Shown: one piece after another, positions 15,330-57,989 of the stretch | How positions within the stretch are numbered: position 1 is the first letter of the stretch | Layout: every line of letters starts with the position of its first letter | Source of the DNA: Alteromonadaceae bacterium Bs31 | Lineage (GTDB): Bacteria > Pseudomonadota > Gammaproteobacteria > Pseudomonadales > Cellvibrionaceae | Reading direction: 5' to 3' | Assembly: GCA_900177435.1 (NCBI GenBank) | Contig: FXAI01000008.1 | Location: forward strand, 50,689 to 114,688 | Length of the DNA: 64,000 bases | Notes under the pieces: model-generated | Seen by the model: the letters and a program-made list of their open reading frames with translations, nothing else | Database searches by the model: none | What the model was told of the DNA's origin: nothing | Position numbers and translations under genes: made by a program

Positions 15330-15352
15330 TCTTGCTGTTCTATATGCAGCCA

Positions 15353-20257: not shown

Positions 20258-20414
20258 GGCTGCACTCCGCTTGCTGGATAAAATCACCGGGACGCGCAGT
20301 CTCCAGCGAAGATGGTTCAATTAGTGTGATCAGGCGCTAGATTACAGCTCGAATGTGGCGTATTCCAGTATGGAAGATGACAGATTATGGCAGCACCAAG
20401 TGAGAGGGGCGGAT

Positions 20415-25328: not shown

Positions 25329-25339
25329 ATCTGCCTTAA

Positions 25340-33029: not shown

Positions 33030-33713
33030 TTATTCGCCTTTAAAGTCGCTTTCAGAAACAACTTTATAAAGATTTTCTTCGGCGATGTATTCGAGCAGTA
33101 CAACTCTATCGCCTCGTTTAAATTGTTCTTCTTTGTAAGGCCTGACTTTTACAAGAAGGCCTGCTCCGCCGTCTTCGACGGTGGCTTCGCCAAACTTTTT
33201 GTCAACTCGTCCGGTTCGAACTATGGCTACCTGGCCAACTATGGTTTTCTCCACTTCTTGATTGGCGGCTTGGAAAATGGGGCGTAGTGGTCTGATTACT
33301 GTGGCAGTTATCATCGCTGATACGTAGGCTGTGCCGATAAATACAGGAATAGCTACTAAGAATTTGAGCAGTGCACCAGGTACAAAGGGAAACAGGAAAT
33401 AGACGATTAGAAAGCTGATTACCCAGCCAAGCAGTGCGATTAGAGTAAGTACTATGGTGAGCGGCACCGCGTTGAGACCAAGCTTGAGTAGAAGCCCGGA
33501 CATCACGTTAAGATTACTCATATCATCAAAATTATTGATATCAATATCTTCCGGAATGTCGAAGTCAAGAATGTCGATTTCAACCATACCTAGTACCGCC
33601 AGTGCCCAGTACAGTATGCAGAAAATTAGAAGAACCGTGAAAACAACAGTAGGAAAAGAGGAGCAAATCTCATAGAACGGGTCCATCTTTTCACTGAAAA
33701 ATATTGCAAACAT
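33030..33713 (-). CDS. yqiJ: NfeD-like inner membrane protein (YqiJ-like partner of flotillin) with a C-terminal OB-fold region.
   Basis: Multiple TM helices, then VGQVAIVRTGRVDKKFGEATVEDGGAGLLVKVR. It sits immediately upstream of the flotillin gene, as in yqiJK. Confidence 0.7.
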   Translation of the reverse strand: MFAIFFSEKMDPFYEICSSFPTVVFTVLLIFCILYWALAVLGMVEIDILDFDIPEDIDINNFDDMSNLNVMSGLLLKLGLNAVPLTIVLTLIALLGWVISFLIVYFLFPFVPGALLKFLVAIPVFIGTAYVSAMITATVIRPLRPIFQAANQEVEKTIVGQVAIVRTGRVDKKFGEATVEDGGAGLLVKVRPYKEEQFKRGDRVVLLEYIAEENLYKVVSESDFKGE

Positions 33714-39465: not shown

Positions 39466-39775
39466 GTGTGTTGGGCCTTGTTATTTTATAGTTTATCTGG
39501 AGCTAAATGCGGCGATTATGCAGCTAATTTAATCAATCTTGCCCCCTTGATGCTAGTGGTAAAGGGGATTAATGTGAGCTTGTTGTAGCTTTTTAGCTTC
39601 AAGCGTCGGCAATATTTACAGTCGCTGTAATCTTGTGCTGGACCTCCTGCTTGTATCGCAGCTGCAAATAAGCCCATGCTGTTTAGAGTGTAGAATATAC
39701 CGCAGCGAAAAAACCAAGTGTTACTGCGGTCTTTCTACAATTCATTCTTACTTATGCTACTACCTCGTACCTCGC

Positions 39776-41032
39776 ATGCTAGAGCTTACAGAACATACCA
39801 GTAACAACCGTCAGCGCATTCTCAGTCGAATTCTGGTTTTGCGGGTAATTGCTCTGCTTGTAGCCTTGGCTGTGCTGTTGGGCTTCCAGTTCTATTTGCA
39901 GCGTGAGCTTAATTATAGCTTGCTCTACAGCATCGCAGTCATGGTGTTAATTTACACGGTATTTACCTTGCTGCGGTTGAGGAGAAGCAAGCCCGTTACG
40001 GATATCGAGCTGTTTGTCCATTTGCTAATGGATGGCATTATTTTATTGGTGCTGGTTTTTTATTCTGGCAGGGCCAGTAATCCATTCATTTATTACTTAC
40101 TGGTATTGGTTGCAATAAGTGCGGCCATATTCAATGGCAGGCTCGCATGGAGTTTTGCCGCTCTGTCGGTATTCGCTTACACCGCTCTTTTGTATGTTGA
40201 TATCGGTGCTCACCTTCATCATATGTTTACTGATTTCCAGTTGCATCTGGTAGGCATGTGGGTCAATTTTGTGGGTAGCACTATGCTAATCAGTTATTTC
40301 GTTTCTACATTGGCAACGGCCCTGCGGGATAGGGAAGTACGTCTGGCTAAAGCCAGGGAGGCAACGCTTAAAAACGAACAGTTAATTGGCATCGGTGCTT
40401 TGGCTGCGTCTACAATGCATGCGCTTGGTACACCATTATCTACCATGGCGGTTACCCTCAGTGAGCTTAAACACGATCAGGTACTTGATAGTGAAAATGC
40501 AGATCTACTGCTTTCTCAAATTGAGCGATGCAAACAGACAATGGGTAAGCTCGCTCTTATTGCAGAGAGTAAAAAGCCGGACGCCCAGATAGCTTTTGTG
40601 GGTGATCTAATAGAAGAGTTGGAAGAGCACTATCATCTGCTTTGCCCCAGAATTATGCCGTGCTATGACATAGAAGGCAGCGCTCGAGATAAAGCGGTGA
40701 ATGAAAGTGTGCTCCTGCTTTATGCCTTAATCAACCTGGTTGATAATTCTATTCGAGCAGCCAAAGCGGAAGTGCTGGTAAAGGTTGCGGTGCAGGAAGA
40801 TGTGCTGATAATCACCATCGTCGATGACGGCCCTGGTGTTCCCGCTGAAATGTTGGAAGATTTTGGCAAGCCAAATTTTTCCAGGCAAAACGGTGGTTTG
40901 GGTATTGGCGTTTTTTTGGCGAATACCACTTTGGAGAAGCTGGACGGTAGTATTGTTTTGTTTAACCCCCAAGAGAGCAGGAGCGGGAAAACAACGGTTG
41001 TTGTGGAGCTGCCCTTAGTCAAAAATGAGTGA
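39776..41032 (+). CDS. regB: Membrane sensor histidine kinase, RegB/PrrB/ActS-like.
   Basis: Five to six N-terminal TM helices, H-box ASTMHALGTPLS and an HATPase_c region (LINLVDNSIRA...DDGPGV...GGLGIG). Start taken at the ATG at 39776; the 8-bp overlap with the downstream regulator suggests coupling. Confidence 0.7.
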   Translation: MLELTEHTSNNRQRILSRILVLRVIALLVALAVLLGFQFYLQRELNYSLLYSIAVMVLIYTVFTLLRLRRSKPVTDIELFVHLLMDGIILLVLVFYSGRASNPFIYYLLVLVAISAAIFNGRLAWSFAALSVFAYTALLYVDIGAHLHHMFTDFQLHLVGMWVNFVGSTMLISYFVSTLATALRDREVRLAKAREATLKNEQLIGIGALAASTMHALGTPLSTMAVTLSELKHDQVLDSENADLLLSQIERCKQTMGKLALIAESKKPDAQIAFVGDLIEELEEHYHLLCPRIMPCYDIEGSARDKAVNESVLLLYALINLVDNSIRAAKAEVLVKVAVQEDVLIITIVDDGPGVPAEMLEDFGKPNFSRQNGGLGIGVFLANTTLEKLDGSIVLFNPQESRSGKTTVVVELPLVKNE

Positions 41033-41561
41033 TAAAAAATTATTTTATTTAGAAGACGATGAAGTGCTGGCACAGGTGAGTTGCAGAGCTTTGCAAAAGC
41101 GTGGTTACGCTGTATCGCACTTTCTAAGCCTCGCCGACGCTGAGGTTTGCGGTAATTTGGCGGGTTTTCAGTTCGCCTTGCTGGACTTAAAGCTGGGAGA
41201 TGGCAATTCGTTACCCTTGATCGACCGCTTGCATCAGGCAAATAGCAATATGAATATTGTCGTGCTCACCGCTTATGCCAGTATTGCCACAGCCGTGCAG
41301 GCAGTTAAAAGTGGGGCCGCCAATTATCTCGCCAAGCCCGCCACAATAGACGAAGTAGTACGTGCCTTTGAGGGGCAAGTGAGTGAGGCGGAAAATGTAG
41401 AAGAGCTGAACGATGAGATGTCGCTGCGTCGCAGGGAGTGGGAAACCATTCAGGCTGCACTTGCTGCTAACAATGGCAATGTGTCGGCCACCGCCCGACA
41501 GCTCAAAATGCATCGTCGAACATTGCAGCGAAAGTTACAGAAAAAGCCCGTTAGTGAATAA
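41025..41561 (+). CDS. regA: Response regulator of the RegA/PrrA/ActR family (REC domain plus Fis-type HTH).
   Basis: REC motifs (YLEDDE, ALLDLKLGDG) and the highly characteristic C-terminal ...ATARQLKMHRRTLQRKLQKKP. Confidence 0.8.
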   Translation: MSDKKLFYLEDDEVLAQVSCRALQKRGYAVSHFLSLADAEVCGNLAGFQFALLDLKLGDGNSLPLIDRLHQANSNMNIVVLTAYASIATAVQAVKSGAANYLAKPATIDEVVRAFEGQVSEAENVEELNDEMSLRRREWETIQAALAANNGNVSATARQLKMHRRTLQRKLQKKPVSE

Positions 41562-43906: not shown

Positions 43907-43937
43907 AAGGGGCTGCTTATGCAGCCCTTATTTTTTG
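43907..43937 (+). terminator. Rho-independent terminator after the outer-membrane protein gene.
   Basis: AGGGGCTGC-ttat-GCAGCCCTT followed by ATTTTTTGTT. Confidence 0.6.
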
Positions 43938-44632
43938 TTGACCCGAGCCATTAATTCTTCTGCGCTTTCTTTTCGCTCTGAATAGCGATCAACTAAGTAA
44001 TCTTTTTTATCTCGCAGCAGCAAGGTGAATTTTACCAGCTCTTCCATAACGTCCACGATACGGTCGTAGTAAGCTGAGGGCTTCATCCGGTCGTTATCAT
44101 CAAATTCCAGCCAGGCTTTGGCGACAGAGGATTGGTTGGGGATAGTGAACATCCTCATCCAGCGGCCCAATATGCGCAGTTGATTGACCGCGTTAAAACT
44201 TTGCGAGCCACCACATACTTGCATTACTGCCAGTGTTTTTCCCTGGCTAGGGCGAACTGCACCCAGAGAAAGTGGTATCCAGTCAATTTGGGATTTCATT
44301 ACTCCAGTCATCGCGCCATGGCGCTCGGGTGAGCACCACACCATTCCATCGCTCCACTGAACAAGCTCACGCAGCTCTTGAACTTTTGCGTGCTCTGCAT
44401 CGCTGTCGTCAGGTAAAGGCAATCCAGAAGGGTTAAATGTGCGGGTTTGCGCTCCGAATTGCTGGAGGATTCTTGCGGCTTCCTCGGTGGCCAGTCGGCT
44501 AAAAGATCGGCTTCTTAAAGAACCGTAAAGCAACAGTATTTTCACCGGAGCCTGGTTCTCATTGTCTAAGCTCAGTTTTTCTTTTGCTATGGGCGTAAGT
44601 GCGTCTTTTACAATATTGGGCAGTTCTTTCAT
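43928..44632 (-). CDS. arsH: ArsH, an NADPH-dependent FMN reductase associated with arsenic resistance.
   Basis: [17 protein letters not shown]... flavodoxin-like NADPH:FMN reductase motif. Last gene of the arsR-arsC-acr3 operon. Confidence 0.8.
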
Positions 44633-45649
44633 TTATTCAAACCAGTGTCTGGTGCGGTTGGCAAAGGCGACTAGGGAGAGCATTACAGGTACCTCTACCA
44701 GTACACCAACAACGGTTGCCAGTGCTGCGCCAGATTGTAAGCCGAACAAGGAAATTGCAACGGCCACCGCGAGCTCAAAAAAGTTGGATGTGCCGATCAT
44801 GCAGGCGGGGGCGGCAATATTGTGAGGTAGCCGCATTTTTTTTGCCAGAAAATAGGCAATAGCAAATATACCGTAGGTTTGGATGAGTAGCGGGATGGCG
44901 ATTAATACGATGGTTGAAGGTTGAGCCAGAATGGTTTTGGCTTGAAAGCCGAAAAGCAATACCACGGTTGCCAGCAAACCAATAATGGACCAAGGTTTTA
45001 AGAGCTGCAGGAAATGATTTAAGCGCTCATGATTGTCTCTGCGGTCGAGTACTTTACGGGTAAGAGCGCCGGCGATTAGTGGCAGCAGCACATAGAGCAC
45101 AACAGATAAAAGTAAGGTTTCCCAGGGCACTTGGATGTCACTGATCCCCAGCAAAAATGCAGCGATAGGGGCAAAGGCAAAAATCATGATGACATCGTTT
45201 ACGGAAACCTGGACCAGAGTGTAGTTGGGGTCGCCTTTGGTGAGTTGGCTCCACACGAACACCATTGCCGTACACGGAGCTACCCCAAGCAGGATCATGC
45301 CTGCGATATATTCGGAAGCGCTAGCGGGGTCGACAAAATCAGCAAATAAAACCTTGAAGAACAGCCAGCCCAGAGCTGCCATGGTGAAGGGTTTAATCAG
45401 CCAGTTAATTACCAGAGTAAGTACAAGTCCCTTAGGCTTTTTACCGATATCTTTGATGGATGAGAAATCCACCTGAATCATCATCGGGTAAATCATTACC
45501 CAGATAAAAATCGCTACCGGTAAATTCACATGAGCGTATTCCAGTTTTGCGAAGAATTCAAAAACGCCAGGAAAGAAATAGCCAAGAAATACGCCTGCGA
45601 GAATACACAGGCCAACCCATACAGAGAGTAAGCGCTCGAATATTCCCAT
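44633..45649 (-). CDS. acr3: ACR3-family arsenite efflux permease.
   Basis: N-terminus [20 protein letters not shown]..., 10 TM helices over 338 aa. Confidence 0.85.
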
Positions 45650-46122
45650 TAGTTCTGCTCCCCTATGCGCTCTAGAGCCTGTTTAAGTTCTACCTCACTC
45701 ATGTTCTCAAGGTCCAACGCCAACATCGCCTTTACTCTCTGTTCGATAGTCGCCATTACAGCATAAAAAGCAGATTTTATTTCCTGTTCTGTTCCTTCGA
45801 GCTTTGATGGGTCGGGCAGGCCCCAGTGAACTTGTATGCTCTTGCCAAACCATACCGGGCAGGTTTCTTTTGCGGCACTGTCGCATACGGTAAACACCAC
45901 GTCTGGTTCGAAAGCTTCGTGTTCATCCCAGGACTGGCTTATCAAGCCTTCTGTGGAAATACCCTTTTCCTGTAAGTACTGAATGGAACGTGGATGAACC
46001 TCGCCGACGGGCGAACTTCCGGCGCTGCGCGCTTCCAGTTTGCCCTTGCCTAAGTGATTACTAATTGCCTCGCCGAGAATACTTCGACAGCGGTTATGGG
46101 TGCAGATATATAAAATTTTCAT
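45649..46122 (-). CDS. arsC: Arsenate reductase of the LMW protein-tyrosine-phosphatase (thioredoxin-coupled) family.
   Basis: [17 protein letters not shown] is a CX5R P-loop. Confidence 0.85.
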
Positions 46123-48221: not shown

Positions 48222-49457
48222 GTGCACAACGCAACGCAAGAGGCATATTCCAGGGTTCGTAATCAAACTCGGTTGTTGGTAGAAGGGCTGAGCCCGGAAG
48301 ATATGGCTGCCCAGTCCATGGCGGATGCCAGCCCCGCAAAATGGCATTTGGCTCATACCACGTGGTTCTTCGAAACATTTATTCTTATTCCCCACTTTCC
48401 TTCCTATAAACCATTTAGCGAGCAGTTCCAGATACTATTTAATTCCTATTATGAATCTGTAGGGGAGCGACACCCCAGGCCCCAACGAGGCTTGCTCACC
48501 CGTCCGGGCTTGGACACTGTGTTGGAGTATCGTAACTACGTCGATCGCTTTATGGATAAAATTACTGACGATGAGCGTAAAGAGATAGCCGATTTGGTCT
48601 GTGTTGGTTTGCATCACGAGATGCAGCACCAGGAGCTGTTGCTAACGGACATCCTGCACCTTTTTTCAAATAACCCATTGTTCCCTGCGGCCATGGAGAA
48701 AAATGAAACAAGGCCTGCGGCGAATAGTGCTGCACTGCAGATGCACAGCTTTGATGGCGGCTTAATTGAAATTGGTGCGCTACAGCAAGGCTTTAGCTAC
48801 GATAACGAAAGACCCAGGCACAGCACTTTCCTCAACCCCTTTAGATTGGCGAATCGCTTGGTAAGTAATGAAGAGTGGTTGGAATTTATCGCTGATGGTG
48901 GCTATACAAATAGCCTTCTTTGGTTGTCTGATGGCTGGGCTACCTGTTTGCGTGAACGATGGTATGCGCCCTTGTACTGGCGAGAGCAAGAACGAGGCTG
49001 GATGCACTTTGGTTTGGATGGCTTGAAGCCGCTGGATCTGCATGCGCCGGTTTGTCACATAAGTTACTACGAAGCAGACGCCTTTGCGCGCTGGAGTGGC
49101 AAGCGTCTGCCTCGAGAGCAAGAGTGGGAAATGTGCGCAGCGGAGCAACAAATACAGGGTAACTTTTTAGAGGCGGCTAATTGGAGGCCGCTGGCAGCAA
49201 GCAGCATGAGCAATACTCAACAGCTTTACGGCGACGTGTGGGAATGGACCCAAAGCCCCTATTCCGCCTATCCCGGATTTAAAGCTGAAATGGGTGCTTT
49301 GGGTGAATATAACGGCAAATTTATGGCCAACCAGTTCGTATTGCGTGGTGGTTCTTGTGCCACGCCCATCAAGCAAATGCGCAACTCCTACCGAAACTTT
49401 TTTTACCCTCACCAGCGATGGCAGTTTAGCGGCTTACGCCTTGCTGAAGACTGCTAA
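48222..49457 (+). CDS. egtB: Ergothioneine biosynthesis sulfoxide synthase EgtB (DinB-like domain plus FGE-sulfatase domain).
   Basis: HLAHTTWFFETF (DinB_2 His), then an FGE-like C-terminal region (GDVWEWT, RGGS). GTG start. Confidence 0.8.
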   Translation: MHNATQEAYSRVRNQTRLLVEGLSPEDMAAQSMADASPAKWHLAHTTWFFETFILIPHFPSYKPFSEQFQILFNSYYESVGERHPRPQRGLLTRPGLDTVLEYRNYVDRFMDKITDDERKEIADLVCVGLHHEMQHQELLLTDILHLFSNNPLFPAAMEKNETRPAANSAALQMHSFDGGLIEIGALQQGFSYDNERPRHSTFLNPFRLANRLVSNEEWLEFIADGGYTNSLLWLSDGWATCLRERWYAPLYWREQERGWMHFGLDGLKPLDLHAPVCHISYYEADAFARWSGKRLPREQEWEMCAAEQQIQGNFLEAANWRPLAASSMSNTQQLYGDVWEWTQSPYSAYPGFKAEMGALGEYNGKFMANQFVLRGGSCATPIKQMRNSYRNFFYPHQRWQFSGLRLAEDC

Positions 49458-49503
49458 ATACTCCGGAAAACATTTCTCCCCAAGCCCACATTAAGGAGCA
49501 AAC

Positions 49504-50463
49504 ATGCCTACCAGTGCAGCTAGAAAACAATATGATGCGGATGCCTTCGAAAGTGAATTCGAAACGGACGTTGTTGACGGTTTAACTCGGGCAGATAAAC
49601 AATTGTCGCCAAAATATTTTTACGACGAGCAGGGCTCTCGTTTTTTTGATCAAATTTGTGAGTTGGACGAGTACTACCCTTACAAAACGGAGCTTCGCTT
49701 ATTGCCGCTGGTGGCCAGAGACCTGAGTCGTATCTTGAAAGATGATTACTCCGTTATAGAGTTCGGTGCTGGCTCTTTGTTAAAAATAAGGCCAATTCTA
49801 GATTGGCTGCGAGGTGTGAGGCAATTTCTACCCATCGATATTTCAGGTGAGCATCTGCGCGATGCCTGTGCAAGTCTCGCTGTGGATTACGCTCATATAG
49901 ATATTCGTCCAGTGGAAGGGGATTTTACCCAAGAGGTGGAGTTGGGTAAAACTGTTGGTAAGCGTCTGGGGTTTTTCCCCGGTTCTACTATCGGCAATTT
50001 TACGCCGCAGCAGGCCAGGGATTTTCTTGCTACGGCTAAACAAACTTTGGGGCGGGACAGTTATATTATTATTGGTGTGGACACTAAAAAATCTACTCAG
50101 ATACTTCATCGAGCGTATAACGATGCCGCTGGCATTACCGCCAAGTTTAATTTAAATATTCTTCATCGAATAAACCGGGAACTGAGCGGTAATATCCCGG
50201 TGGAACGTTTTGAGCACTATGCCCATTACGATACGCAGGCAGGCTGTATAAAAATGCATTTAGTCAGTTTGGATAAGCAGCAATGTCGCGTGGCAGGGGA
50301 GGATATTCACTTCGCTAAAGGGGAGAGTATCCACACAGAAAGCTCTTACAAATATCGCCCGGATGAGTTCATAGCACTGGCTGCGTCAGCGGGATGGGAT
50401 TGCGAAAAAGAATGGCTGGCGGAGGGCGAGTTGTTCAGTATGTTTTTGTTTAAGAGTGAGTAG
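49504..50463 (+). CDS. egtD: L-histidine N-alpha-methyltransferase EgtD.
   Basis: YFYDEQGSRFFDQICELDEYYPYKTE..., IEFGAGS SAM motif. Confidence 0.85.
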   Translation: MPTSAARKQYDADAFESEFETDVVDGLTRADKQLSPKYFYDEQGSRFFDQICELDEYYPYKTELRLLPLVARDLSRILKDDYSVIEFGAGSLLKIRPILDWLRGVRQFLPIDISGEHLRDACASLAVDYAHIDIRPVEGDFTQEVELGKTVGKRLGFFPGSTIGNFTPQQARDFLATAKQTLGRDSYIIIGVDTKKSTQILHRAYNDAAGITAKFNLNILHRINRELSGNIPVERFEHYAHYDTQAGCIKMHLVSLDKQQCRVAGEDIHFAKGESIHTESSYKYRPDEFIALAASAGWDCEKEWLAEGELFSMFLFKSE

Positions 50464-51262
50464 GGCCATTAAGCCACAGTGCTGGATACGAACCTTTTTT
50501 GATAGGCTCAGCCTTGGTAATGTTCATGCGCTTTTCTGTGGCCATAGCGCACAAGCTATTTTGCAATGGTCGAAAAAACATCCGCTGTATATTGCCATTG
50601 AGATGGGAGAGAATACAGCTCCGCCGCAAGTACGCTTCTATCAAAATGGTTATGAAGTTCGCCGTTGCGGGTCTGGGAATATTGCTGTGGCCGCTTATCT
50701 TGAAAACACCTTCGGTCCGTCTTCATCTGTCCTCATTAAAGCCTCCTCAGAATCTATAACGCTGAACATGCATGGTTCGGGGCTGTATGGTTATAGCGCT
50801 CAGACACTACCCCAATACCCTTTACGGCAAGCGTCCTTTTGGCGCAATGTTTTATCGTGTAAATGTGTACATGGAGCATACGCTGGCGGGCCTAGAGACT
50901 ATGTTGTTTTGGAAGTAGAGGATGAGCAAAGCCTGTGTGCATTAAAGCCTTCCTTAAAGTTGCTAAAACAATATTCAGGCCGAGCACTGATAGCAAGCGC
51001 CAAAGCTGGCGGCGACTGTAACTATGTGCTGAGGTACTTTGCACCCCAGTATGGAAACAACGAAGACCGTGCGACGGGCTCTGCTAACATACAACTGCTG
51101 CGCTATTGGTTTAACCGAGGCTTGCATGGAAAGCTAAAGGCCCGACAGCTGTCTGAGGGTGGCGGGGCGTTTTATGGACAGTTCTTGAAAAATGGCGCTC
51201 AGTTATGGGGGCGAGCCAGGATTGAATCCGCGCCTGATGTACGCAAATACCGGGCGGTCTAA
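50456..51262 (+). CDS. PhzF-family isomerase-like protein.
   Basis: GTG start overlapping the egtD stop. The N-terminal FFDRLSLGNVHALF is comparable to the PhzF AFTDRPFGGNPAAV; the rest has a PhzF-like size and Gly pattern. Confidence 0.5.
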   Translation: MSRAIKPQCWIRTFFDRLSLGNVHALFCGHSAQAILQWSKKHPLYIAIEMGENTAPPQVRFYQNGYEVRRCGSGNIAVAAYLENTFGPSSSVLIKASSESITLNMHGSGLYGYSAQTLPQYPLRQASFWRNVLSCKCVHGAYAGGPRDYVVLEVEDEQSLCALKPSLKLLKQYSGRALIASAKAGGDCNYVLRYFAPQYGNNEDRATGSANIQLLRYWFNRGLHGKLKARQLSEGGGAFYGQFLKNGAQLWGRARIESAPDVRKYRAV

Positions 51263-51470: not shown

Positions 51471-51851
51471 ATGGCGCAAACAACTTTTGCTAATTCAAGG
51501 GGCATTGCTCACAAGGGCAGTGGTGGTATGAGTATTGTTTTCCCGGATGTGTGTAAAACACCTACTCCCGGTGGGCCTGTGCCTATTCCTTATCCAAATA
51601 TTGGCAAGGCCTCGGATACATCTAAAGGCCCCAAATCAGTGAAAGTGGACAAGAAAATGCCTATGGTGAAAGGCGCTCAGTATTCTCGCAGTGCCGGAGA
51701 CGAGGCGGGCACCCTTAAAGGGGTTGTCAGTAGCGATCAGATGGGCGTTTGTGAATTTATGATGTATTCCTTTGACATAAAGTTTGAAGGTAAGAACGTT
51801 TGCCGCATGGGTGACCCACTGTTTCATAATAAAAAGAATATCATGGGCTGA
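51471..51851 (+). CDS. Standalone PAAR-like DUF4150 domain protein.
   Basis: Highly characteristic FPDVCKTPTPGGPVPIPYPN motif. 126 aa with no extension or toxin domain. Confidence 0.6.
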   Translation: MAQTTFANSRGIAHKGSGGMSIVFPDVCKTPTPGGPVPIPYPNIGKASDTSKGPKSVKVDKKMPMVKGAQYSRSAGDEAGTLKGVVSSDQMGVCEFMMYSFDIKFEGKNVCRMGDPLFHNKKNIMG

Positions 51852-52018
51852 CGAAAAGCCTTCGTACACCCTTTGACAATAGATGCCTGTGGGCTAAACA
51901 CCTTTTTTGATACTTATTGATCATTCAAGAGGGTAAGCCAAATAATATGGACAGGGCCAGGGCTAATTCCGCTACAATATTGCCCCTCCAAAGAACCTTC
52001 TCTAAGTAAGCGATAGCT

Positions 52019-53425
52019 ATGAAAAGCATATGTATAGGCTTGTGGGCCTTTTTTCTTTGCAATACCGCCAACGCCTCCTTGATATCAGCCTATTTTAAAG
52101 ACGAAGACGGGCATACCAAGTGGCAGCATGTGGCTAACTTTTCTGGATCGGTGTTAATCACGCTGCTGTCCATCACCCTTATTTCGCTTTTTTTCAGCTA
52201 CAGAAATACACGTCGTGCGAATCGTGCCTTGAATGAAATCCGCATGGGGCTGGAAGACCGGGTACAAGAAAGAACGGCAACCCTGGCAGAGGCCAATAAG
52301 GCTTTGGAAGGTGAGATAAACGAGCATCGCGAAACCATGTCCCGCCTGCAAACGTCGCAAGGTTATATAAAAAGCATTGTAGACTCCATGCCGCTGATGT
52401 TGATCGGCTTAAATGAAAATATGGAAATCACCCAGTGGAATAGCTCGTCTGAAAATACCACCGGGGCTAAGCGCGAGCAGGTACTGGGAAAAAATTTGTG
52501 GGAGGCCTATCCCACCATCACGCTATCACCTGAACAAATTCAAGACGTACTGAAAAACAAGTCCACCACAACTATCAAGCACAGCCAGCGCGGTCAGTAT
52601 TATTTTGATATGACCCTCTATTCCCTGCAGGGTAACAGCGATGTGGGTATTGTGATTTTGCTTGAAGATGTTACCAAACGCGTTAAAGCAGAAAATCGTT
52701 TAATTGAACTGGATAAAATGGCATCCATGGGGGAGCTTGCCGCGACAATGGCTATTGATGTTGGCGCCCCCCTGCAAAATATAATGCAAAGCCTAAAGTG
52801 TTTGCAGACCCCAGTGGAGAAAATTGAAAAAGAGAATTTTCAGCAATGCATAAGCAGTGCCCTGGAGAATGGTCAGCAAGCGGATGCCATCATGCAGAAC
52901 CTTGTGGCCTTTTCGCAGAGCCAGGGTGGCGACTTACAGCTTGCATCTATTCCAGAGATTTTAGATCACACTATAGAGCTTGCAGACCGGGTTTTATCCA
53001 ATGCGGCGGGCTTAAAATTTCGAGACGTGACCTTGGAAAAAGATTATCAGGGAAGTGTCAGTAGAGTTCCTTGCCAAAAAGCTGAACTCCAGCAGGTATT
53101 TTTAGGTATTTTTCGCCATGCTATCCACGCGCTTGGCGAGTGCGGGCGCGAAGATTTTGTGCCAACGATTTCCGTGAGCGTAAACGAATTTTATGATGCC
53201 ATTTGGATTAAGGTTAACCACAATGGCAAGGGCTTGACTGCGGAAGAGCAGCAAACCATTTTTGAGCCTTTCTTTCTTAATGATACTTCGCCTAAAGTTA
53301 ATACCGCCATGCAGCGTTTGTCATTCGCTCATTTTGTAGTGACTGAGCATCATCACGGCCACATGGCGGTTACTTCAGATGTTGATGTGGGAACTACATT
53401 TCACGTTCAGATGCAGCTACGTTAG
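52019..53425 (+). CDS. Membrane-anchored PAS-domain sensor kinase-like protein with a degenerate H-box (no phospho-acceptor His) and a degenerate G2 box; a probable pseudo-kinase.
   Basis: Signal/TM segments, PAS (IVDSMPLMLIGLNENMEITQWN...), dimerisation region ASMGELAATMAIDVGAPLQ with the His replaced, and a C-terminal IFEPFF...GTTFHVQMQL that lacks the GxGLGL box. Confidence 0.6.
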   Translation: MKSICIGLWAFFLCNTANASLISAYFKDEDGHTKWQHVANFSGSVLITLLSITLISLFFSYRNTRRANRALNEIRMGLEDRVQERTATLAEANKALEGEINEHRETMSRLQTSQGYIKSIVDSMPLMLIGLNENMEITQWNSSSENTTGAKREQVLGKNLWEAYPTITLSPEQIQDVLKNKSTTTIKHSQRGQYYFDMTLYSLQGNSDVGIVILLEDVTKRVKAENRLIELDKMASMGELAATMAIDVGAPLQNIMQSLKCLQTPVEKIEKENFQQCISSALENGQQADAIMQNLVAFSQSQGGDLQLASIPEILDHTIELADRVLSNAAGLKFRDVTLEKDYQGSVSRVPCQKAELQQVFLGIFRHAIHALGECGREDFVPTISVSVNEFYDAIWIKVNHNGKGLTAEEQQTIFEPFFLNDTSPKVNTAMQRLSFAHFVVTEHHHGHMAVTSDVDVGTTFHVQMQLR

Positions 53426-54104
53426 CCGCCTCTTTATTCTCAACGATTTTACTAGGGTGATACGGGCCGGCTGGAAAGCGTGTGTTGTCCAGTATAAAAA
53501 CCTCTTGCACAGCTTGCTCGGCCAGCGGGCGGTAATCGGGAAATGCCCGTTCCATTGCCGCTGAAATAGCACTGCCAAGCAGTTGTGCCAGAACACTGTT
53601 GGTTTCCATATTATTATTTTCGTTAGAAGACTTATCTACACGCTTTGTGGCGTTCCAAATTTCCTCCCCACTGCTGGTAACCAGTTTGAATTTGAGCTCA
53701 ATGCCCGTGGTAGAGTCGATAACCACATACTGGGTATCCCACTGTTCCACCGTTACGTATAGAACCGCGTTAGCACCAAACATTGAGGCCAGCTTTGACG
53801 TTTGCATGGAGTGAACATCGGCTGCTTCATAGAGCCCCTCGTGTTCCAATACAAACTTAACCGTATTTACCGGGAATACGTAGTAGCCTTCGTCAGCCAA
53901 AACCGTTGGAAGTACGCTCAGCATTGTTCCCGGTGCATAAATATTCACACTGCGATTCACGCCGGGTACAACAAGGATCGAGCGAATGCCTGCTGCGTCG
54001 AAGCTGTCTTGATAAGGGTTTTTATGCTGAGTGCTGGTTTCGCAAGCTGAAAGTACAACGATCAGGGTTAGCGAAACAGCATAGCGAAATATTTTAAGGT
54101 CCAC
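53394..54104 (-). CDS. DUF799-family lipoprotein (partner in CsgG-like/DUF4810/DUF799 clusters).
   Basis: Lipoprotein signal LIVVLSAC. The call rests on size and position, as last gene after the CsgG-like and DUF4810 genes. Confidence 0.5.
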   Translation of the reverse strand: MDLKIFRYAVSLTLIVVLSACETSTQHKNPYQDSFDAAGIRSILVVPGVNRSVNIYAPGTMLSVLPTVLADEGYYVFPVNTVKFVLEHEGLYEAADVHSMQTSKLASMFGANAVLYVTVEQWDTQYVVIDSTTGIELKFKLVTSSGEEIWNATKRVDKSSNENNNMETNSVLAQLLGSAISAAMERAFPDYRPLAEQAVQEVFILDNTRFPAGPYHPSKIVENKEAANVAASEREM

Positions 54105-54450
54105 TGTTAGTTCGTCCCTGTAAATTAGTGATCAATGCTGACATAAAGTCGCGGCTTTCGGGCCAGGCCTCGTACTCTTTTTGGTAATAAATGACGGCGC
54201 TTGTTGAATCCCCTGCCTCCAAAAAATAGGTGCCCACCTCCGCGTATAAGCCGGGGGGCACGACCGCTTCCTGTTTCTCAAGGTTTTCGATATGTGTTAC
54301 CAGGCGCGCACGAATTTTGGAATGCTCAGCCGGCTCCTGATAGTAGTGGTAGAGGCCGTCCGAGTAGTTGCCCCACTTATACCGGGTGCTTTGCGTGGTA
54401 CAGCCCACCACGCAAAGCAATATTAAAGAAAGGGAGAGTAGTTTTATCAT
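54094..54450 (-). CDS. DUF4810-family lipoprotein.
   Basis: MIKLLSLSLILLCVVGCTTQ lipobox. 118 aa with a TPR-like helical C-terminus (YYQKEYEAWPESRDFM). Confidence 0.5.
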   Translation of the reverse strand: MIKLLSLSLILLCVVGCTTQSTRYKWGNYSDGLYHYYQEPAEHSKIRARLVTHIENLEKQEAVVPPGLYAEVGTYFLEAGDSTSAVIYYQKEYEAWPESRDFMSALITNLQGRTNSGP

Positions 54451-54785
54451 GGAATTTGCAGCGCTTTAACTGCCCCATCGCCTAAGTAAATTTTAGTTTG
54501 AAGTACCGTTTCACCGTTAAGCTTTAATTCAACCACATGGCTGCCGCTGAGAACTCTTAGCGCAGCCACACCGGTAAGGTACTGGTCTGCTGTTCCCATT
54601 GCCAGCCCGTCAACATACACGGCATAAGCTGAGCCGGCTTGTGTTTCATTAAGCGGAGTGAATGAAATAGCGGGACGTAAATCTACTGTCTCTTCCATTG
54701 TGGTGGGTTGTTTTACGCAAGCACTGGTAAGCATTAGCAGAGCAGAACAACAACACAATAGGATAATTCGGATAAAAGTTTTCAT
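54447..54785 (-). CDS. Small lipoprotein of unknown function.
   Basis: MKTFIRIILLCCCSALLMLTSAC lipobox. 4-bp overlaps with both neighbours. Confidence 0.45.
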   Translation of the reverse strand: MKTFIRIILLCCCSALLMLTSACVKQPTTMEETVDLRPAISFTPLNETQAGSAYAVYVDGLAMGTADQYLTGVAALRVLSGSHVVELKLNGETVLQTKIYLGDGAVKALQIP

Positions 54786-55768
54786 TATTTGCTCTCCTGT
54801 ATCACTAACTGGCTTGGCTTGTACTGGGAAATATTTCCGCTGAGGATTTCAACAACGCTGCCTTCGTCGGCTTCGGTGCTGCCGAACATGGATACCACTT
54901 TTACTCGAGCTATTTTTTTGCCGGGTAGCTGAATGTTAAAGCCGGTTTGTGCGGATTTAACCGTCTTTCCTCGTAGTAGTACATCGAACTCCATGCCGGG
55001 TTTCACGCCCTGACTTTTACCGCCTCCCATAAATATAACACCGTCTTCAATGGCGAGAATATTCGACTGCCAGGGTGTACTTGCCAGTAGTTGTGTAAAT
55101 TCATTTACGGCTTCTGCAATGGCTATGGAGATGGCCCGATCGTTAATGGCCGCATCGTAATCGGCTTTTGAGCCAAAACCGGCGACGTTAACATTTTCGA
55201 TAGAGGCTTCCCCTGCACCACTGAATGCAGCAGAAACTTGTGCGGTGGTAGCATCCACCAGGCGTAAATCTACTTTCGCATAGGCTGTTTGCTTTTTACT
55301 GGAAGAAAGAAAGCCAGACTCGCCAGTAGTTCTTCGTCCAAATTCGGTCAGGGAGCCAAGCAGTAGGGCGTCCACGCCAACCAGGTTCAGTTCCTGGCCT
55401 GTAAGTGCGGCTTCATCCTGTAAGCGGGCAATGTCGGGCCTTTCAAAGACTAAAAAATTACCTGATTCGGTCAGTGCTTTGGAAAGCATATCGGTAACTT
55501 GCTTACCAAGAACATCATCATGGTTGTCGCGCAGCAGGCTTTTACCATGCAGTGTCTCATTAGAGACTCTGCCCAGCGCCACCTTGCGCTTGAGATTTAA
55601 TTGTTGTGTCTGTGTTTGCTCCAAAGCCTGTTGCTGAGCTTGCCGTTGTTCTTCCAGGGAGTAACTGCTTTCCTTTTTCTCAACGGGGGGTGACTGGCTG
55701 GCGCAGCCGGCGAATACCAGAGCACAACAAGCGAGTGCTACAGGTGTTGCGAGTGACTGTATTTTCAT
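54785..55768 (-). CDS. CsgG-family (curli-secretion-channel-like) outer-membrane lipoprotein.
   Basis: Lipobox VFAGCAS, then VALGRVSNETLHGK...GKQVTDMLSKALTESGNFLVFERPD, a typical CsgG N-terminal core. Confidence 0.75.
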   Translation of the reverse strand: MKIQSLATPVALACCALVFAGCASQSPPVEKKESSYSLEEQRQAQQQALEQTQTQQLNLKRKVALGRVSNETLHGKSLLRDNHDDVLGKQVTDMLSKALTESGNFLVFERPDIARLQDEAALTGQELNLVGVDALLLGSLTEFGRRTTGESGFLSSSKKQTAYAKVDLRLVDATTAQVSAAFSGAGEASIENVNVAGFGSKADYDAAINDRAISIAIAEAVNEFTQLLASTPWQSNILAIEDGVIFMGGGKSQGVKPGMEFDVLLRGKTVKSAQTGFNIQLPGKKIARVKVVSMFGSTEADEGSVVEILSGNISQYKPSQLVIQESK

Positions 55769-55955: not shown

Positions 55956-57989
55956 CTAGGTGGCTAGCTCGGCAACCTGATAGTCCTTGCTCATGGTTTG
56001 TTGTATGTTAATTGGCACTGGCTCATAGTGGCTAAATTCGATGGTAAAGGAGCCTTTACCGCCTGTCATGGATTTTATCCTAGACTGGTAATCGAACAAT
56101 TCAGCCAGGGGTAGTATTGCTGAAATGTGCACGCGCTGCTTGGTACTGGGTATCGCATTGGTAACAATACCTCGGTGTGAGGAAATATCGCCGGTAATGT
56201 CACCCATAGCCTCCTCGGGAGCCATCACCTCAGCGTTTACCATTGGTTCCAATATCACTGGCACCGCTTTACTCACCGCTTCTATAAAGGCTTTTCGGCC
56301 TGCTGCAACGAAAGCAATCTCTTTGGAGTCCACCGCATGATGTTTGCCATCGTACACACTAACCCGGAGATCTTGCATGGCAAACCCCGCTATGGCGCCT
56401 TCGAGCAGTAGTTGACGAACGCCTTTCTCCACAGCCGGTATAAATTGCCCCGGAATTACGCCGCCGACGATTTTGTTAACAAATTCAAAACCCTCCCCTC
56501 GCGGCAGCGGCTCGACTTCAAGAAATACCTCTCCGAACTGGCCCGCTCCACCACTTTGCTTTTTATGTCGGGCGTGGCCCTTGGCCGGCTGGGTAATCGT
56601 TTCGCGGTAGTCGATGCTCGGTGGCGAGGTTTTTACCGCAACATTGAAAATGCTCTCCATTTTCTCCAGGGCAATTCGCATATGGAATTCACCAACACCG
56701 TGTAACACGGTTTCATTTAAGTTGATGCGGTGTTCAACACGCAGGCTGGGGTCTTCTGCGGCAAGCTTTTTTAGCGCCTCAGATAACTTTTGCTCATCGC
56801 CACGTCGAGTCGTCTGCACAGCAAGGCCATACATTGGTGCAGGAAAGTCCAGTGATTTCAGGTGGATATGATCGTCTTCATGTGAATCGTGTAGCACCGA
56901 GTCGAATTCAATTTCGTCAATTTTGGCGATAGCACAAATATCACCGGGTAACGCGCTGTCTATTTCCTCTCTCTGTGCACCTTGAACCTTGTAGAGGTGG
57001 CTTACCTTGAAAGCTTTGCGTCCATCGCCTATGAACAGCTGGCTGTCGGGTTTGATCTCTCCCTGGTGTACCCGCATAAGCGCGAGGCGCCCCATAAAGG
57101 GATCTACAGATACTTTAAAAACATGGGCAAGAATATGGTCTTCTGCTTTTTCTGAAAGCTCAACAGGCGCATCGCCTTTTAAAAATAACGGGGTATTGCC
57201 TTCGAGGGGGTTGGGCATGAGCTCAGTAAGTATTCTAACCAGTTCCGGGATACCGGTGCCTTCGCGAGCAGAGACAAAACAGATGGGAATGAGGTGTTGG
57301 CTGCGAAGGGCTTTTTCAAAAGGGTCGTGCAGCTGCTTGGGCTGTAACTCTTCTCCCTGCTCTAGGTATAAGGCCATGAGATCCTCGTCCACCTCCACAA
57401 CCTGATCGACCAGTGCGTCGTGGGCCTGGCTTACACTGCAGAACTCGGTATCGGTTTTTTGCGGCGCAAAGTAGCAGTCTACTATCGACTCGTGGCCCGG
57501 AACCGGCAGGTTTAGCGGTAGGCATTCTCCTCCGAATTGCTGTTGCAGAGCTAATATAAGTTCGCTCAGGTCGTAATCTGCTGCATCTATTTTATTGATG
57601 ATTATCAGGCGGCACTTGTCTCGTTTTTTGGCAATGTTCATCATGCGTTCTGTAACCATTTCAATGCCAGTTTGTGCATCGATAATCACTGCTACGCTCT
57701 CTACCGCAGGAAGGACACTGATACTGCGCCCAATAAAATCCGGGTAGCCCGGTGTATCTAGCAAGTTCACATGTACATTGTTGTGAGTGAAGCTGCACAC
57801 GCTAGTTTCTACAGAATGTTGAAGTTGTTTGGATTGAGTATCGTGATCTGTGACGGTGGTGCCCCGTGCGATTTCTCCCAGTGTGTTAATGGTTCCGCAC
57901 TCAAACAGCAGTCGCTCGATAAGGCTGGTTTTACCGCAACCAGTGTGCCCTGTAAAAGCGATATTTCTGATAGATTCAGTCGTAGTCAT
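55956..57989 (-). CDS. Elongation factor G-like translational GTPase (EF-G paralog).
   Basis: G1 AFTGHTGCGKTS, G3 DTPGYPDF, G4 NKID; EF-G domain II-V layout over 677 aa. Confidence 0.85.
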   Translation of the reverse strand: MTTTESIRNIAFTGHTGCGKTSLIERLLFECGTINTLGEIARGTTVTDHDTQSKQLQHSVETSVCSFTHNNVHVNLLDTPGYPDFIGRSISVLPAVESVAVIIDAQTGIEMVTERMMNIAKKRDKCRLIIINKIDAADYDLSELILALQQQFGGECLPLNLPVPGHESIVDCYFAPQKTDTEFCSVSQAHDALVDQVVEVDEDLMALYLEQGEELQPKQLHDPFEKALRSQHLIPICFVSAREGTGIPELVRILTELMPNPLEGNTPLFLKGDAPVELSEKAEDHILAHVFKVSVDPFMGRLALMRVHQGEIKPDSQLFIGDGRKAFKVSHLYKVQGAQREEIDSALPGDICAIAKIDEIEFDSVLHDSHEDDHIHLKSLDFPAPMYGLAVQTTRRGDEQKLSEALKKLAAEDPSLRVEHRINLNETVLHGVGEFHMRIALEKMESIFNVAVKTSPPSIDYRETITQPAKGHARHKKQSGGAGQFGEVFLEVEPLPRGEGFEFVNKIVGGVIPGQFIPAVEKGVRQLLLEGAIAGFAMQDLRVSVYDGKHHAVDSKEIAFVAAGRKAFIEAVSKAVPVILEPMVNAEVMAPEEAMGDITGDISSHRGIVTNAIPSTKQRVHISAILPLAELFDYQSRIKSMTGGKGSFTIEFSHYEPVPINIQQTMSKDYQVAELAT

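Follow-up and report, generated by a model that had tools for sequence, protein, structure and literature searches.

Analysis of 64,000 nucleotides of contig FXAI01000008.1 from Alteromonadaceae bacterium Bs31 (the window, to which all positions refer) indicated that the gene at 52019–53425 on the forward strand, encoding the 468-residue protein SMF47665.1 and ending in a TAG stop codon, probably specifies a catalytically dead, non-phosphorylating signalling protein, a histidine pseudokinase of a conserved orphan family. A preliminary description of this DNA had taken the protein for a pseudo-histidine kinase, and that call is now stronger than first put, as the phospho-acceptor is absent and the N, G1, G2 and lid motifs, 4/4 of the nucleotide-binding motifs, are all non-canonical. 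The gene, its parts and the adjoining elements are as follows, with the evidence in brackets.

51917–51946 (+): promoter-like site in the 167-bp intergenic region 5′ of the gene (consensus scan 9/12, a weak match only)
52019–53425 (+): complete histidine-kinase-like pseudokinase gene (ORF list; 100% match to P0001)
52019–52075 (+): aa 1–19, N-terminal signal peptide or signal-anchor MKSICIGLWAFFLCNTANA, with A-x-A at 17–19 (sequence; predicted helix 2–26)
52076–52138 (+): aa 20–40, short extracytoplasmic loop (T33, W35, Q36 and N40 invariant; motif T-K/N-W-Q-H/Y-V/I-A-N)
52139–52201 (+): aa 41–61, TM helix 2 (hydrophobic stretch FSGSVLITLLSITLISLFFSY; within predicted helix 35–106)
52202–52357 (+): aa 62–113, juxtamembrane signalling helix or coiled coil (predicted helix unbroken to 106)
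52358–52684 (+): aa 114–222, PAS domain (Pfam PAS_9, PAS and PAS_4; PAS match 118–222)
52685–52933 (+): aa 223–305, DHp-like helical hairpin (predicted helices 219–263 and 271–301)
52730–52774 (+): aa 238–252, degenerate H-box GELAATMA-I246-DVGAPL, canonical GGLAAGMA-H-EINNPL (PDB, outgroup and family alignments)
52754–52756 (+): codon ATT for Ile246 (two substitutions from a His codon)
52934–53422 (+): aa 306–468, CA-like (GHKL-fold) domain with a remodelled nucleotide pocket (HATPase_c 45 bits)
53093–53131 (+): aa 359–371, degenerate N-box QVFLGIFRHAIHA, canonical QVFLNILKNGAQA (both Asn lost)
53213–53236 (+): aa 399–406, degenerate G1 box V-N-H401-N-G-K-G-L, canonical E-D-N-G-P-G-M (alignments)
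53258–53275 (+): aa 414–419, retained F-box IFEPFF (alignments)
53276–53326 (+): aa 420–436, former ATP lid and G2 remnant A-M-Q-R433-L-S-F, canonical T-G-L-G-L-S-V (outgroup alignment)
53394–53425: 32 nt over which the pseudokinase gene and the GNA1162-like lipoprotein gene at 53394–54104 (−), which converges on it, overlap at their 3′-ends (coordinates)

The replacement of the H-box His, proposed in the preliminary description, was borne out by the PDB, outgroup and family alignments, all of which place Ile246 of the Bs31 protein in the column of the phospho-acceptor His. A-I246-D-V-G-A-P lies under A-H-E-I-R-N-P of ThkA (3a0r) and A-H-E-L-N-Q-P of FixL/YF1; the closest canonical relatives, GGLAAGMAHEINNPLA, align gap-free with the Bs31 protein, GELAATMAIDVGAPLQ; and it is exactly column 246 that carries His in 80/120 family members. 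An alternative register with a conserved His a few residues away, which had been named as the refuting case, is excluded, as residues 219–305, DHp included, hold neither His nor Tyr; H317, the first His beyond them, already lies in the CA domain, in its first helix.

At the nucleotide-binding site, the N-box NxxxN has become GxxxH (outgroup N-I-L-K-N vs G363-I-F-R-H367 in the Bs31 protein). H367 and R366 are invariant in 120 homologues and H370 occurs in 102/120, and among 80 species representatives position 367 is His in 68 and Tyr in 12. In the G1 box DNGxG is changed to HNGKG, with Asp replaced by His401 in 120/120 homologues and 80/80 species and the G1 glycines kept; the adenine-binding Asp lost here is, to our knowledge, universal in GHKL ATPases. 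The degeneracy of the G2 box noticed earlier was also confirmed, AMQRLSF aligning under TGLGLSV, with R433 present in 79/80 species and a new H462 in the last strand of 80/80. From these motifs we infer that ATP binding has been lost. Since the replacement residues hardly vary, if at all, among the 120 homologues and 80 species, with 0–1 changes on the 120-taxon tree, the catalytic domain appears to have died only once, in the common ancestor of the family; the ATP-site loss would thus be an ancient, single and family-wide event, after which the acceptor His would have become dispensable. The N-box and G1 losses (H367 and H401) were absent from the preliminary description, which understated the case.

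The new His and Arg residues occupy positions that, judging from established GHKL structures, are the Mg-ATP contact sites of canonical kinases; His is able to coordinate metals and to accept hydrogen bonds, and Arg to bind phosphates, so that a non-canonical nucleotide site is conceivable. It is possible, if on balance unlikely, that the GHKL fold has been re-tooled, such that a neofunctionalised pocket formed by H367, H370, H401 and R433, possibly with H462, binds a new ligand (a metal, or an anionic metabolite or nucleotide) and the CA-like domain serves as an additional sensor or as a catalytic centre of a new kind, rather than as a docking surface alone. Equally tentatively, the protein would then be a receptor with two inputs, the loop/PAS side and the pocket, and a phosphorylation-independent output, and the family would show the full stepwise path from the canonical relative P0130 through ATP-site loss to His loss. 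Supportively, 3–4 new His and one Arg presumably stand at the Mg-ATP contact positions, and the substituted residues are (near-)invariant in a family that is otherwise 50% identical; unlike them, the lid loop that separates the F box from G2 is free to vary (47–64 changes per site at 422–428 on the 120-taxon tree, vs one at R433 and none at L434 and S435). However, none of the known metal- or ligand-binding motifs gave a match, and the invariance would equally fit a protein–protein interface or a structural role. If a His/Arg-lined pocket did bind a new ligand, this would be a new signalling use of the GHKL fold.

An exhaustive profile search delimited a discrete family at ≥470 bits, below which canonical kinases followed at ≤350 bits. 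The family spans at least 341 GTDB species, all of them marine gammaproteobacteria of Cellvibrionales type, with Teredinibacter and the Bs31 type (shipworm symbionts), Saccharophagus, Porticoccus and SAR92 among its members. Against the canonical outgroup motifs AHEINNPL, NILKNGAQA, DNGPGM and TGLGLS, the family consensus reads A(H/x)DIxxPL, SxxxH, HNGxG and xxxRLS, and one full-length relative, P0130, carries all canonical motifs together with the same N-terminal loop. A wider group sharing the signature was considered on account of P0168 (RH / RH / RLSF, no loop motif) and rejected, as this sequence is a singleton from a thermophilic Porticoccaceae MAG.

Column 246 holds His in 80, Tyr in 14, Ile in 10 and Gln in eight of the 120 homologues, with other residues in the rest, the full range across the family being H, Y, I, Q, L, M, S, T and N; His is also present in 60/80 species representatives, and in ~67–75% of members overall. 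The ancestral state is His, from which parsimony gives 26 state changes, a count stable over bootstrap trees, and the variability of the position lies at the 63rd percentile of sites, with the neighbouring A245, D247 and P251 almost fixed. His loss at 246 is a secondary and recurrent event, which in the Bs31 clade led from His to Ile. Because a retention of 67–75% exceeds the prediction of full neutrality, the His is possibly still useful where it is kept, and it may retain a role in the His-bearing lineages.

Such a role could be that of a phosphotransferase. In ChpT and Spo0B, a DHp four-helix bundle is combined with a CA-like domain in which ATP binding has been lost, and the His-bearing members might be proteins of this kind, or dedicated phosphatases, with the function lost or changed in the Bs31 clade. 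We consider this improbable. The layout of a DHp with a non-ATP-binding CA-like domain, the ancestral and widely kept His (60/80 species and 80/120 homologues) and the almost fixed H-box residues D247 and P251 would all agree with it, but the His position has undergone 26 state changes in a protein that is otherwise constrained, the Bs31 DHp offers neither His nor Tyr, and 77/80 loci have no receiver or hybrid kinase nearby. In addition, the presumed receiver-docking positions, which literature offsets for response-regulator specificity place at His +7, +8, +11, +12 and +15, are among the more variable DHp sites. ChpT and Spo0B strictly require the DHp His and lack sensor domains, whereas the Bs31 protein has no such His and the family loses it repeatedly. 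The phosphatase variant meets a further obstacle, in that the +4 position of the HisKA phosphatase motif H-E/D-x-x-T/N is A250 in the Bs31 protein, with no Thr or Asn, and is unconserved across the family (I, T, A, S, M, P, V, L). Among the roles offered in the preliminary description (scaffold, phosphatase or regulator), that of a phosphatase is accordingly disfavoured, for want of both the His and the +4 Thr/Asn, and we infer that scaffold for, or regulator of, a different signalling protein is the best reading.

In predicted fold and domain order the protein resembles a PAS-DHp-CA sensor kinase. The AlphaFold model (mean pLDDT 84) comprises a TM hairpin followed by PAS, DHp and CA-like domains, the CA-like domain scoring mostly >90 except in the lid (59–72). 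The best Foldseek matches were the PAS-DHp-CA kinases YF1, WalK, ThkA and HK853 (E 1e-20 to 1e-12), and NifL and plant phytochrome A, relatives that are not kinases, were matched as well. The model thus suggests that the DHp and GHKL folds are retained in the Bs31 protein. In Pfam, HATPase_c (355–467) passed at 45 bits against a cutoff of 26.4, and PAS passed too; HisKA (237–303) failed at 20.2 bits against 26.9, and the best NCBIfam kinase model, AtoS, failed at 145 bits against 646. A still-active kinase with a non-canonical nucleotide site and a non-His acceptor is highly improbable: the HATPase_c match, the kept F-box and G1 glycines and the kinase or ATP-binding annotation in databases speak for it, but 4/4 Mg-ATP-contacting motif classes are changed, the adenine-binding Asp included, the DHp has no His or Tyr, and HisKA and AtoS remain below their cutoffs. 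Database labels for the family are "NtrB", "histidine kinase" and "ATP-binding protein"; "NtrB" and "ATP-binding protein" are mislabels.

The input side is intact and strongly conserved. Residues 1–19 evolve fast, A19 excepted; the invariant residues of the adjoining loop underwent zero changes on the tree, and the loop motif, which the family has in common with its catalytically intact sister P0130, was selected as the most conserved peptide of the family. The signalling helix contains the invariant residues N68, L71, L78, E79, V82, R85 and T86. By region, the PAS domain is the most conserved part of the protein, with the lowest median of all regions (nine changes per site), and it ends in a D-(D/N)-V-T transmission motif at 216–219, of which D/N217, V218 and T219 are conserved. 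The earlier statement that the periplasmic region and the PAS domain are intact therefore holds for PAS but not for a periplasmic domain, there being only a very highly conserved loop of ~20 residues (aa 20–40), flanked by the N-terminal signal peptide (or TM1) and by TM2.

The two closest His-less orthologs indicated purifying selection, with pN 0.096, pS 0.78 (saturated) and pN/pS ~0.12; only pN and pS are compared, and not dN/dS, because synonymous sites are saturated even against an 85%-identical ortholog. The loss first noticed in the Bs31 protein, for which an ortholog comparison had been proposed, is thus kept in orthologs under purifying selection, that of the ATP site being family-wide and that of the His recurrent. 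A decaying relic or incipient functionless pseudogene, which the lost catalytic residues and the varying genomic contexts of this orphan gene might suggest, is the least probable of all readings and is effectively refuted by these selection and conservation data: the frame is intact in at least 341 species, pN/pS is ~0.12, 57 columns are invariant in 71 sequences of ~50% identity, and the structure prediction is confident.

For the non-phosphorylating pseudokinase favoured here, the following course may be envisaged. The ancestor, a canonical kinase equipped with this sensor and of which P0130 is a living representative, would have lost ATP binding once; the replacements H367, H401 and R433 and the new H462 would then have been fixed; and the His, no longer needed, would have been replaced many times, by Ile in the Bs31 clade. 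The output side has kept its DHp and GHKL folds, and the acceptor His, both N-box Asn, the G1 Asp and the G2 glycines are gone. The present protein would dimerise via its DHp, and a signal at the loop and/or the PAS domain would change the conformation of the DHp/CA-like module, which might bind and modulate a signalling protein encoded elsewhere without any phosphoryl chemistry, in the manner of DivL, RocA and PsmA. The His/Arg-lined remodelled pocket may be a docking or ligand site.

By analogy, the best reading of its closest kind is that of the non-catalytic signal transducers DivL and PsmA. The CA domain of DivL keeps its nucleotide-binding motifs, whereas all ATP motifs are replaced in the present family, which is moreover membrane-anchored with a single PAS domain. 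DivL of Caulobacter crescentus is a PAS-rich, non-catalytic histidine pseudokinase that acts via protein contacts (PMC4211667, PMC5361649). It resembles the family in its PAS-DHp-CA order, its replaced acceptor His and its strongly conserved PAS, and the residue that replaces this His, Tyr, is also found in 14/120 members of the family; it differs in being cytoplasmic/polar and alphaproteobacterial, with several PAS domains and the partners DivK~P and CckA, and is related to the family only at the level of the HK superfamily. PsmA of Streptomyces is a hybrid histidine pseudokinase (PMC12963549, 2026) and likewise represents a conserved family with PAS domains, an H-box position that differs from species to species (D, Q, V or Y in PsmA), non-canonical ATP motifs and no D/ExxT/N phosphatase motif; it too carries the label 'PAS domain S-box protein'. 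Unlike the present family, PsmA resides in the cytoplasm; it has PAS domains in tandem, a long disordered linker and a C-terminal receiver, occurs in a conserved context and binds DivIVA; its ATP motifs are described as unconserved, whereas the replacements reported here are (near-)invariant, and its origin is independent (Actinomycetota vs Gammaproteobacteria). RocA of group A Streptococcus is a membrane HK-like regulator of CovS (PMC7380576), that is, a membrane-anchored inactive HK-like protein that modulates a true kinase encoded elsewhere, which is proposed for the present family as well; however, RocA is a Firmicute protein with a multi-TM N-terminus, no PAS domain and a known heteromeric partner.

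The nearest outgroup, AtoS/NtrB-like HisKA kinases (e.g., P0140–P0269), shares the PAS-DHp-CA core to ~350 bits, the F-box FEPFF and the C-terminal H-x-G ... G-T-x-F motifs. These kinases and P0130 keep AHEINNPL, NxxxN, DNGPGM and TGLGLS, which the present family does not, and P0130 further agrees with it in TM architecture and in the N-terminal loop. Signalling by an HK-derived module in which no His is phosphorylated also occurs in NifL, plant phytochrome and subfamily-2 ethylene receptors, whose partners and biology are unrelated; the GHKL domain of NifL still binds adenine nucleotides.

Studied bacterial histidine pseudokinases amount to a handful (DivL, RocA and PsmA), none of them from marine polysaccharide-degrading gammaproteobacteria, and a literature search found no papers citing accessions of the family and nothing relevant to it in work on Teredinibacter two-component systems. 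As annotation wrongly and uniformly makes these proteins kinases or ATP-binding proteins, inventories of two-component systems in the organisms concerned over-count kinases by one. As a natural experiment, the family also appears to show with unusual clarity in what order a pseudoenzyme evolves: the ATP site would have been lost once and frozen in a new invariant form, and the acceptor would then have drifted and been lost many times independently, with the P0130 lineage, which has all motifs, as a built-in positive control.

The family gene is single copy per locus, and six loci inspected by hand had differing gene contexts. Clustering of 80 species loci revealed no conserved neighbour, no neighbour family occurring at more than 19/80 loci, and gene context accordingly points to no partner. 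The family found at 19/80 loci reflects local Porticoccaceae synteny. Using a 7-sequence REC HMM that was validated on two window regulators, we found a REC gene within 6 kb at 3/80 loci, adjacent only at locus L050. The gene upstream of P0130 was considered as an ancestral regulator and ruled out, being a TonB-dependent receptor.

In the window, the pseudokinase gene is probably monocistronic. Its neighbours are genes for a PAAR-like protein and the GNA1162-like lipoprotein, in agreement with the preliminary statement that no response regulator adjoins it, and the closest REC genes lie 10.5–14 kb upstream. One of these, a REC-Fis gene (41025–41561), adjoins its own RegB/PilS-like kinase gene (the pair spans 39635–41561), and the other, a REC protein gene (38080–39465), has no evident kinase partner; these two-component genes were rejected as partners, as they are 10–14 kb off, the kinase gene forms a pair with the REC-Fis gene, and no link was seen. 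The overlap with the convergent lipoprotein gene, put at about 30 nt beforehand, measures 32 nt; it is not found in the ortholog at locus L005 and is present in the closest ortholog, at L006.

The ORF at 52019-53425 (+) is present at exactly the coordinates given in the preliminary description; it encodes 468 aa, ends in TAG, and its product is 100% identical to SMF47665.1 of Alteromonadaceae bacterium Bs31, a 'PAS domain S-box-containing protein'. Pfam assigned PAS to residues 118-222 and HATPase_c to residues 355-467 (45 bits, above its cutoff), HisKA remained sub-threshold at 237-303 (20.2 bits vs a cutoff of 26.9), and the best NCBIfam kinase model, AtoS, scored 145 bits vs a cutoff of 646. 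The AlphaFold model, built from 71 homologues, was confident (mean pLDDT 84) and contained the following elements:

aa 2-26, N-terminal helix, then a short loop
aa 35-106, long transmembrane-plus-signalling helix
aa 114-217, PAS fold
aa 219-263 and 271-301, two-helix DHp
aa 307-466, alpha/beta GHKL domain

The top structural matches were full PAS-DHp-CA kinases (YF1 4gcz, WalK, ThkA 3a0r and HK853), and NifL and plant phytochrome A, non-kinase relatives of histidine kinases, were also among the matches. As for the membrane-anchored periplasmic region described previously, model and sequence retained the anchor, as a signal-peptide-like TM1 and a TM2, but reduced the region itself to a loop of ~20 residues (aa 20-40) with no sensor domain.

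The phospho-acceptor His had been described as replaced, and Ile246 was indeed found in the His column by three comparisons. In the sequence alignment to solved kinases, A-H-E-I-R-N-P of ThkA and A-H-E-L-N-Q-P of FixL lie over A-I246-D-V-G-A-P of the query; the nearest canonical relatives from the exhaustive search align with it without gaps (GGLAAGMAHEINNPLA vs GELAATMAIDVGAPLQ); and most members of its own family carry His in the I246 column. A misaligned motif with a conserved His a few residues away had also been considered, but residues 219-305 hold neither His nor Tyr, and the next His, H317, already belongs to the CA-like domain, in its first helix. The Ile246 codon is ATT (52754-52756), 2 substitutions from a His codon. 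The register of the H-box is secure.

Of 965 relatives retrieved by a word-indexed search, the best 120 (the 120 homologues) share 48-100% identity with the query over the full length. In an unfiltered profile search of 1.84 billion cluster representatives, a sharp score gap separated the family, full-length proteins of 455-500 aa scoring 470-736 bits, from long multi-PAS kinases with fully canonical motifs, which scored at most 350 bits. When each GTDB species was scanned through one genome, at least 341 species proved to carry a relative; they belong to Cellvibrionaceae, Porticoccaceae, Halieaceae, Spongiibacteraceae, SAR92/HTCC2207, Litorivivens, Dasania, Pseudomaricurvus, Agarilytica and Teredinibacter. 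Their public names in RefSeq and UniRef, examined on SMF47665.1, ABD79273.1/WP_011466497.1 and WP_075187872.1, are 'two-component system sensor histidine kinase NtrB', 'histidine kinase' or 'ATP-binding protein'; yet the ATP-binding motifs are missing from all family members, and the His from a quarter to a third of them. Every NCBIfam model stayed below its cutoff on family members, and the literature search found no papers citing family accessions. The family is widespread and mis-annotated, a new member among the histidine pseudokinases, which are a known concept.

An ortholog search had been suggested previously as a check on whether the loss is conserved. The pocket replacements are conserved across the homologues, whereas the phospho-acceptor column varies: 80 of the 120 homologues have His there, and the others carry Y (14), I (10), Q (8) or one of L, M, S, T and N. 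The 80 species representatives carry H 60, Q 10, Y 7, N 2 and R 1 at this position. Parsimony on a neighbour-joining tree gave an ancestral His and 26 state changes at position 246, a count that was the same in 25 bootstrap trees; 7 further bootstrap trees had only 84-95 of 119 clades in common with the reference tree. By tree inspection, roughly 18-20 of the 26 changes were independent departures from His, the remainder being between non-His states, e.g. Q to I to L or M in the query's clade, and for 14 of the 40 sequences without His the nearest neighbour carries it. The Ile clade (P0001, the query, to P0011; at least 73% identical, Teredinibacter-like) appears to represent one His loss within a Gln-bearing group. 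Position 246 lies at the 63rd percentile of per-site change, and the sites around it are almost frozen (changes: M244 2, A245 3, D247 0, V248 5, P251 0). A ChpT/Spo0B-like phosphotransferase role is possible for the His-bearing members, but it is hard to reconcile with repeated loss of the His and is inapplicable to the query.

The degenerate G2 box reported previously was confirmed, the canonical T-G-L-G-L-S-V reading A-M-Q-R-L-S-F. To judge from the sequence, motif loss exceeds that account: both asparagines of the N-box are lost (N-I-L-K-N to G363-I-F-R-H367), as is the aspartate of the G1 box (D-N-G-P-G to H401-N-G-K-G). In the GHKL ATPases, as seen in structures of HK853, PhoQ, EnvZ and CheA, residues of these boxes coordinate Mg2+, hydrogen-bond adenine N6 and clamp the phosphates. 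Because the residues making these contacts are replaced, canonical Mg-ATP binding by the query would be very unlikely. Retained elements are the F-box (FEPFF) and, at the C-terminus, H-x-G ... G-T-T-F. That the protein is a still-active non-canonical kinase is very unlikely. With the His and the N, G1 and G2 motifs lost, the earlier reading as a pseudo-histidine kinase is supported.

On the tree of 120 homologues, R366, H367, H401, N402, G403, G405, L434, S435 and H462 underwent no change and R433 one; among the 80 species representatives, H401 and H462 are found in 80/80 and R433 in 79/80, and position 367 is His in 68 and Tyr in 12. Within the CA-like domain, evolution is fastest and model confidence lowest at the former ATP lid (422-428). 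Re-lining of the former nucleotide pocket by conserved His/Arg, rather than decay, seems to distinguish the family, which speaks for a newly gained, positive function, putatively as a docking surface or metal/anionic-ligand site. One full-length relative, P0130, carries the family's N-terminal loop motif (DGSTNWQYLAN) and keeps all canonical motifs (AHDINSPL, NLFRNANHA, EDNGVGM and SGLGLSVSHFI). The simplest history would be that an active kinase with the family's sensor lost ATP binding once, that the replacements were fixed, and that the useless His then drifted off.

Non-synonymous divergence between the query and its 85%-identical ortholog was 0.096, with synonymous sites saturated (pS 0.78), and the PAS domain was more constrained still (pN 0.054); 71 sequences of ~50% identity share 57 invariant columns. 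The gene does not appear to be dying, and a decaying relic is very unlikely. The slowest-evolving region is the PAS domain (median 9 changes per site), at whose C-terminus is kept the D-(D/N)-V-T motif, the element coupling PAS to the DHp coiled coil in FixL and YF1. The short extracytoplasmic loop holds four invariant residues (T33, W35, Q36 and N40), its motif being the most conserved family peptide selectable for locus finding, and D232, K233, G238, E239, D247 and P251 are invariant in the first half of DHp helix 1. These conserved parts point to a putatively working signal path. The kinase-specific output surfaces appear relaxed: positions +7, +8, +11, +12 and +15 from the His, the presumed response-regulator specificity residues (offsets as in the HK853/EnvZ literature), changed 24, 31, 67, 20 and 54 times vs a DHp median of 21. 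Among the roles offered previously (scaffold, phosphatase or regulator), phosphatase is disfavoured, as the +4 position varies across the family (I, T, A, S, M, P, V or L).

The query protein is most likely a dimeric, membrane-anchored signal transducer whose output would be conformational, not chemical: a cue sensed by the loop and/or the PAS domain would change the state of the DHp/CA-like module, and a partner encoded elsewhere would then be bound or released. Such conformational, partner-binding logic is established for DivL (PMC4211667), RocA (PMC7380576) and, from a recent description, PsmA (PMC12963549), in which, as in this family, the H-position residue varies, the ATP motifs are non-canonical and D/ExxT/N is missing. 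The family provides a clean and testable view of how a pseudoenzyme evolves step by step, and possibly a re-purposed GHKL pocket.

The lack of an adjacent response regulator was borne out, with a gene for a PAAR-like protein (51471-51851) on one side and a convergent gene for a GNA1162-like lipoprotein (53394-54104) on the other; the ~30-nt 3' overlap with the latter measures 32 nt and recurs in the closest ortholog. The context differs in each lineage examined: EgtB-EgtD-PhzF-PAAR upstream and a CsgG-like lipoprotein operon downstream in the query clade, glyQS-acyltransferase-DUF6524 in Saccharophagus, OMP genes in Agarilytica, a short-chain fatty acid transporter and an epimerase beside the ribosomal operon in Porticoccus, and a molybdopterin oxidoreductase in T. 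waterburyi. When ORFs within 6 kb were clustered over 80 species, no neighbour family occurred in more than 19 loci. With a receiver-domain HMM that detects both regulators of the window, a REC gene lay within 6 kb of a family member at only 3/80 loci and adjacent to it once only. At that locus, L050, the receiver gene (1640-2242, +) stands beside the family member (15-1343) and encodes 200 aa, with a MerR/excisionase-like HTH at the N-terminus and REC at the C-terminus; this family member is the sole one with Gly for Arg at position 433. The receiver gene may be a partner lead or a coincidence. The window's own two-component genes lie 10-14 kb from the query gene, the kinase and regulator at 39635-41561 being paired together. 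Within 38080-41561, a PilS/RegB-like 6-TM kinase (39635-41032) overlaps a short REC-Fis-HTH regulator (41025-41561) by 8 nt, and divergent from this pair is a gene for 461 aa, in which an N-terminal receiver precedes ~340 C-terminal aa without a Pfam match.

Directly upstream of the pseudokinase gene, 51471-51851 (+) encodes a small stand-alone Tox-PAAR-like protein (PF13665, 139 bits); the arrangement recurs at the two orthologous loci L005 and L006, and type VI secretion genes are not evident beside it. Within 48222-51262 (+), an ergothioneine-type biosynthesis pair consists of an EgtB-like gene (DinB_2 plus FGE-sulfatase) and a gene for an EgtD-like histidine methyltransferase; next comes a PhzF-like isomerase gene that begins before egtD ends. 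The convergent four-gene lipoprotein operon (53394-55768, -) has successive overlaps of 1-11 nt:

54785-55768 (-), CsgG-like protein
54447-54785 (-), 112-aa lipoprotein-like ORF, no Pfam match
54094-54450 (-), DUF4810, 11-nt overlap with the GNA1162-like gene
53394-54104 (-), GNA1162-like protein

It looks like a CsgG-type outer-membrane secretion/assembly module. A stand-alone 677-aa EF-G-like GTPase paralog (55956-57989, -) has five of five EF-G domains, lies outside ribosomal protein operons and is conserved in position in L005 and L006.

Elsewhere in the window, four sizeable ORFs, 616-2292 (+), 20415-21599 (-), 31005-32996 (-) and 33030-33713 (-), of 558, 394, 663 and 227 aa, gave no Pfam match at E ≤ 0.001. 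The cluster at 23558-30658 (-) starts with a 1772-aa protein that combines DUF3686 ('ATPase involved in DNA repair'), DUF7902 and AAA; genes for a rhomboid-domain protein, a PLD-like nuclease-fold protein and a zinc-ribbon protein come after it, and the cluster could be a defence or repair module. At 13002-20320 (-), a 1655-aa bacterial alpha-2-macroglobulin (MG1-MG10, bait region and TED domains) is directly followed by a PBP1c-type transglycosylase/transpeptidase, the classical A2M-PbpC periplasmic defence pair. An arsenic-resistance-like operon at 43928-46122 (-) comprises an LMW phosphatase (ArsC type), an Acr3/SBF permease and an ArsH-like FMN reductase, and in L006, the closest ortholog's locus, an ArsR-type HTH_5 gene lies between this operon and a deacetylase gene.
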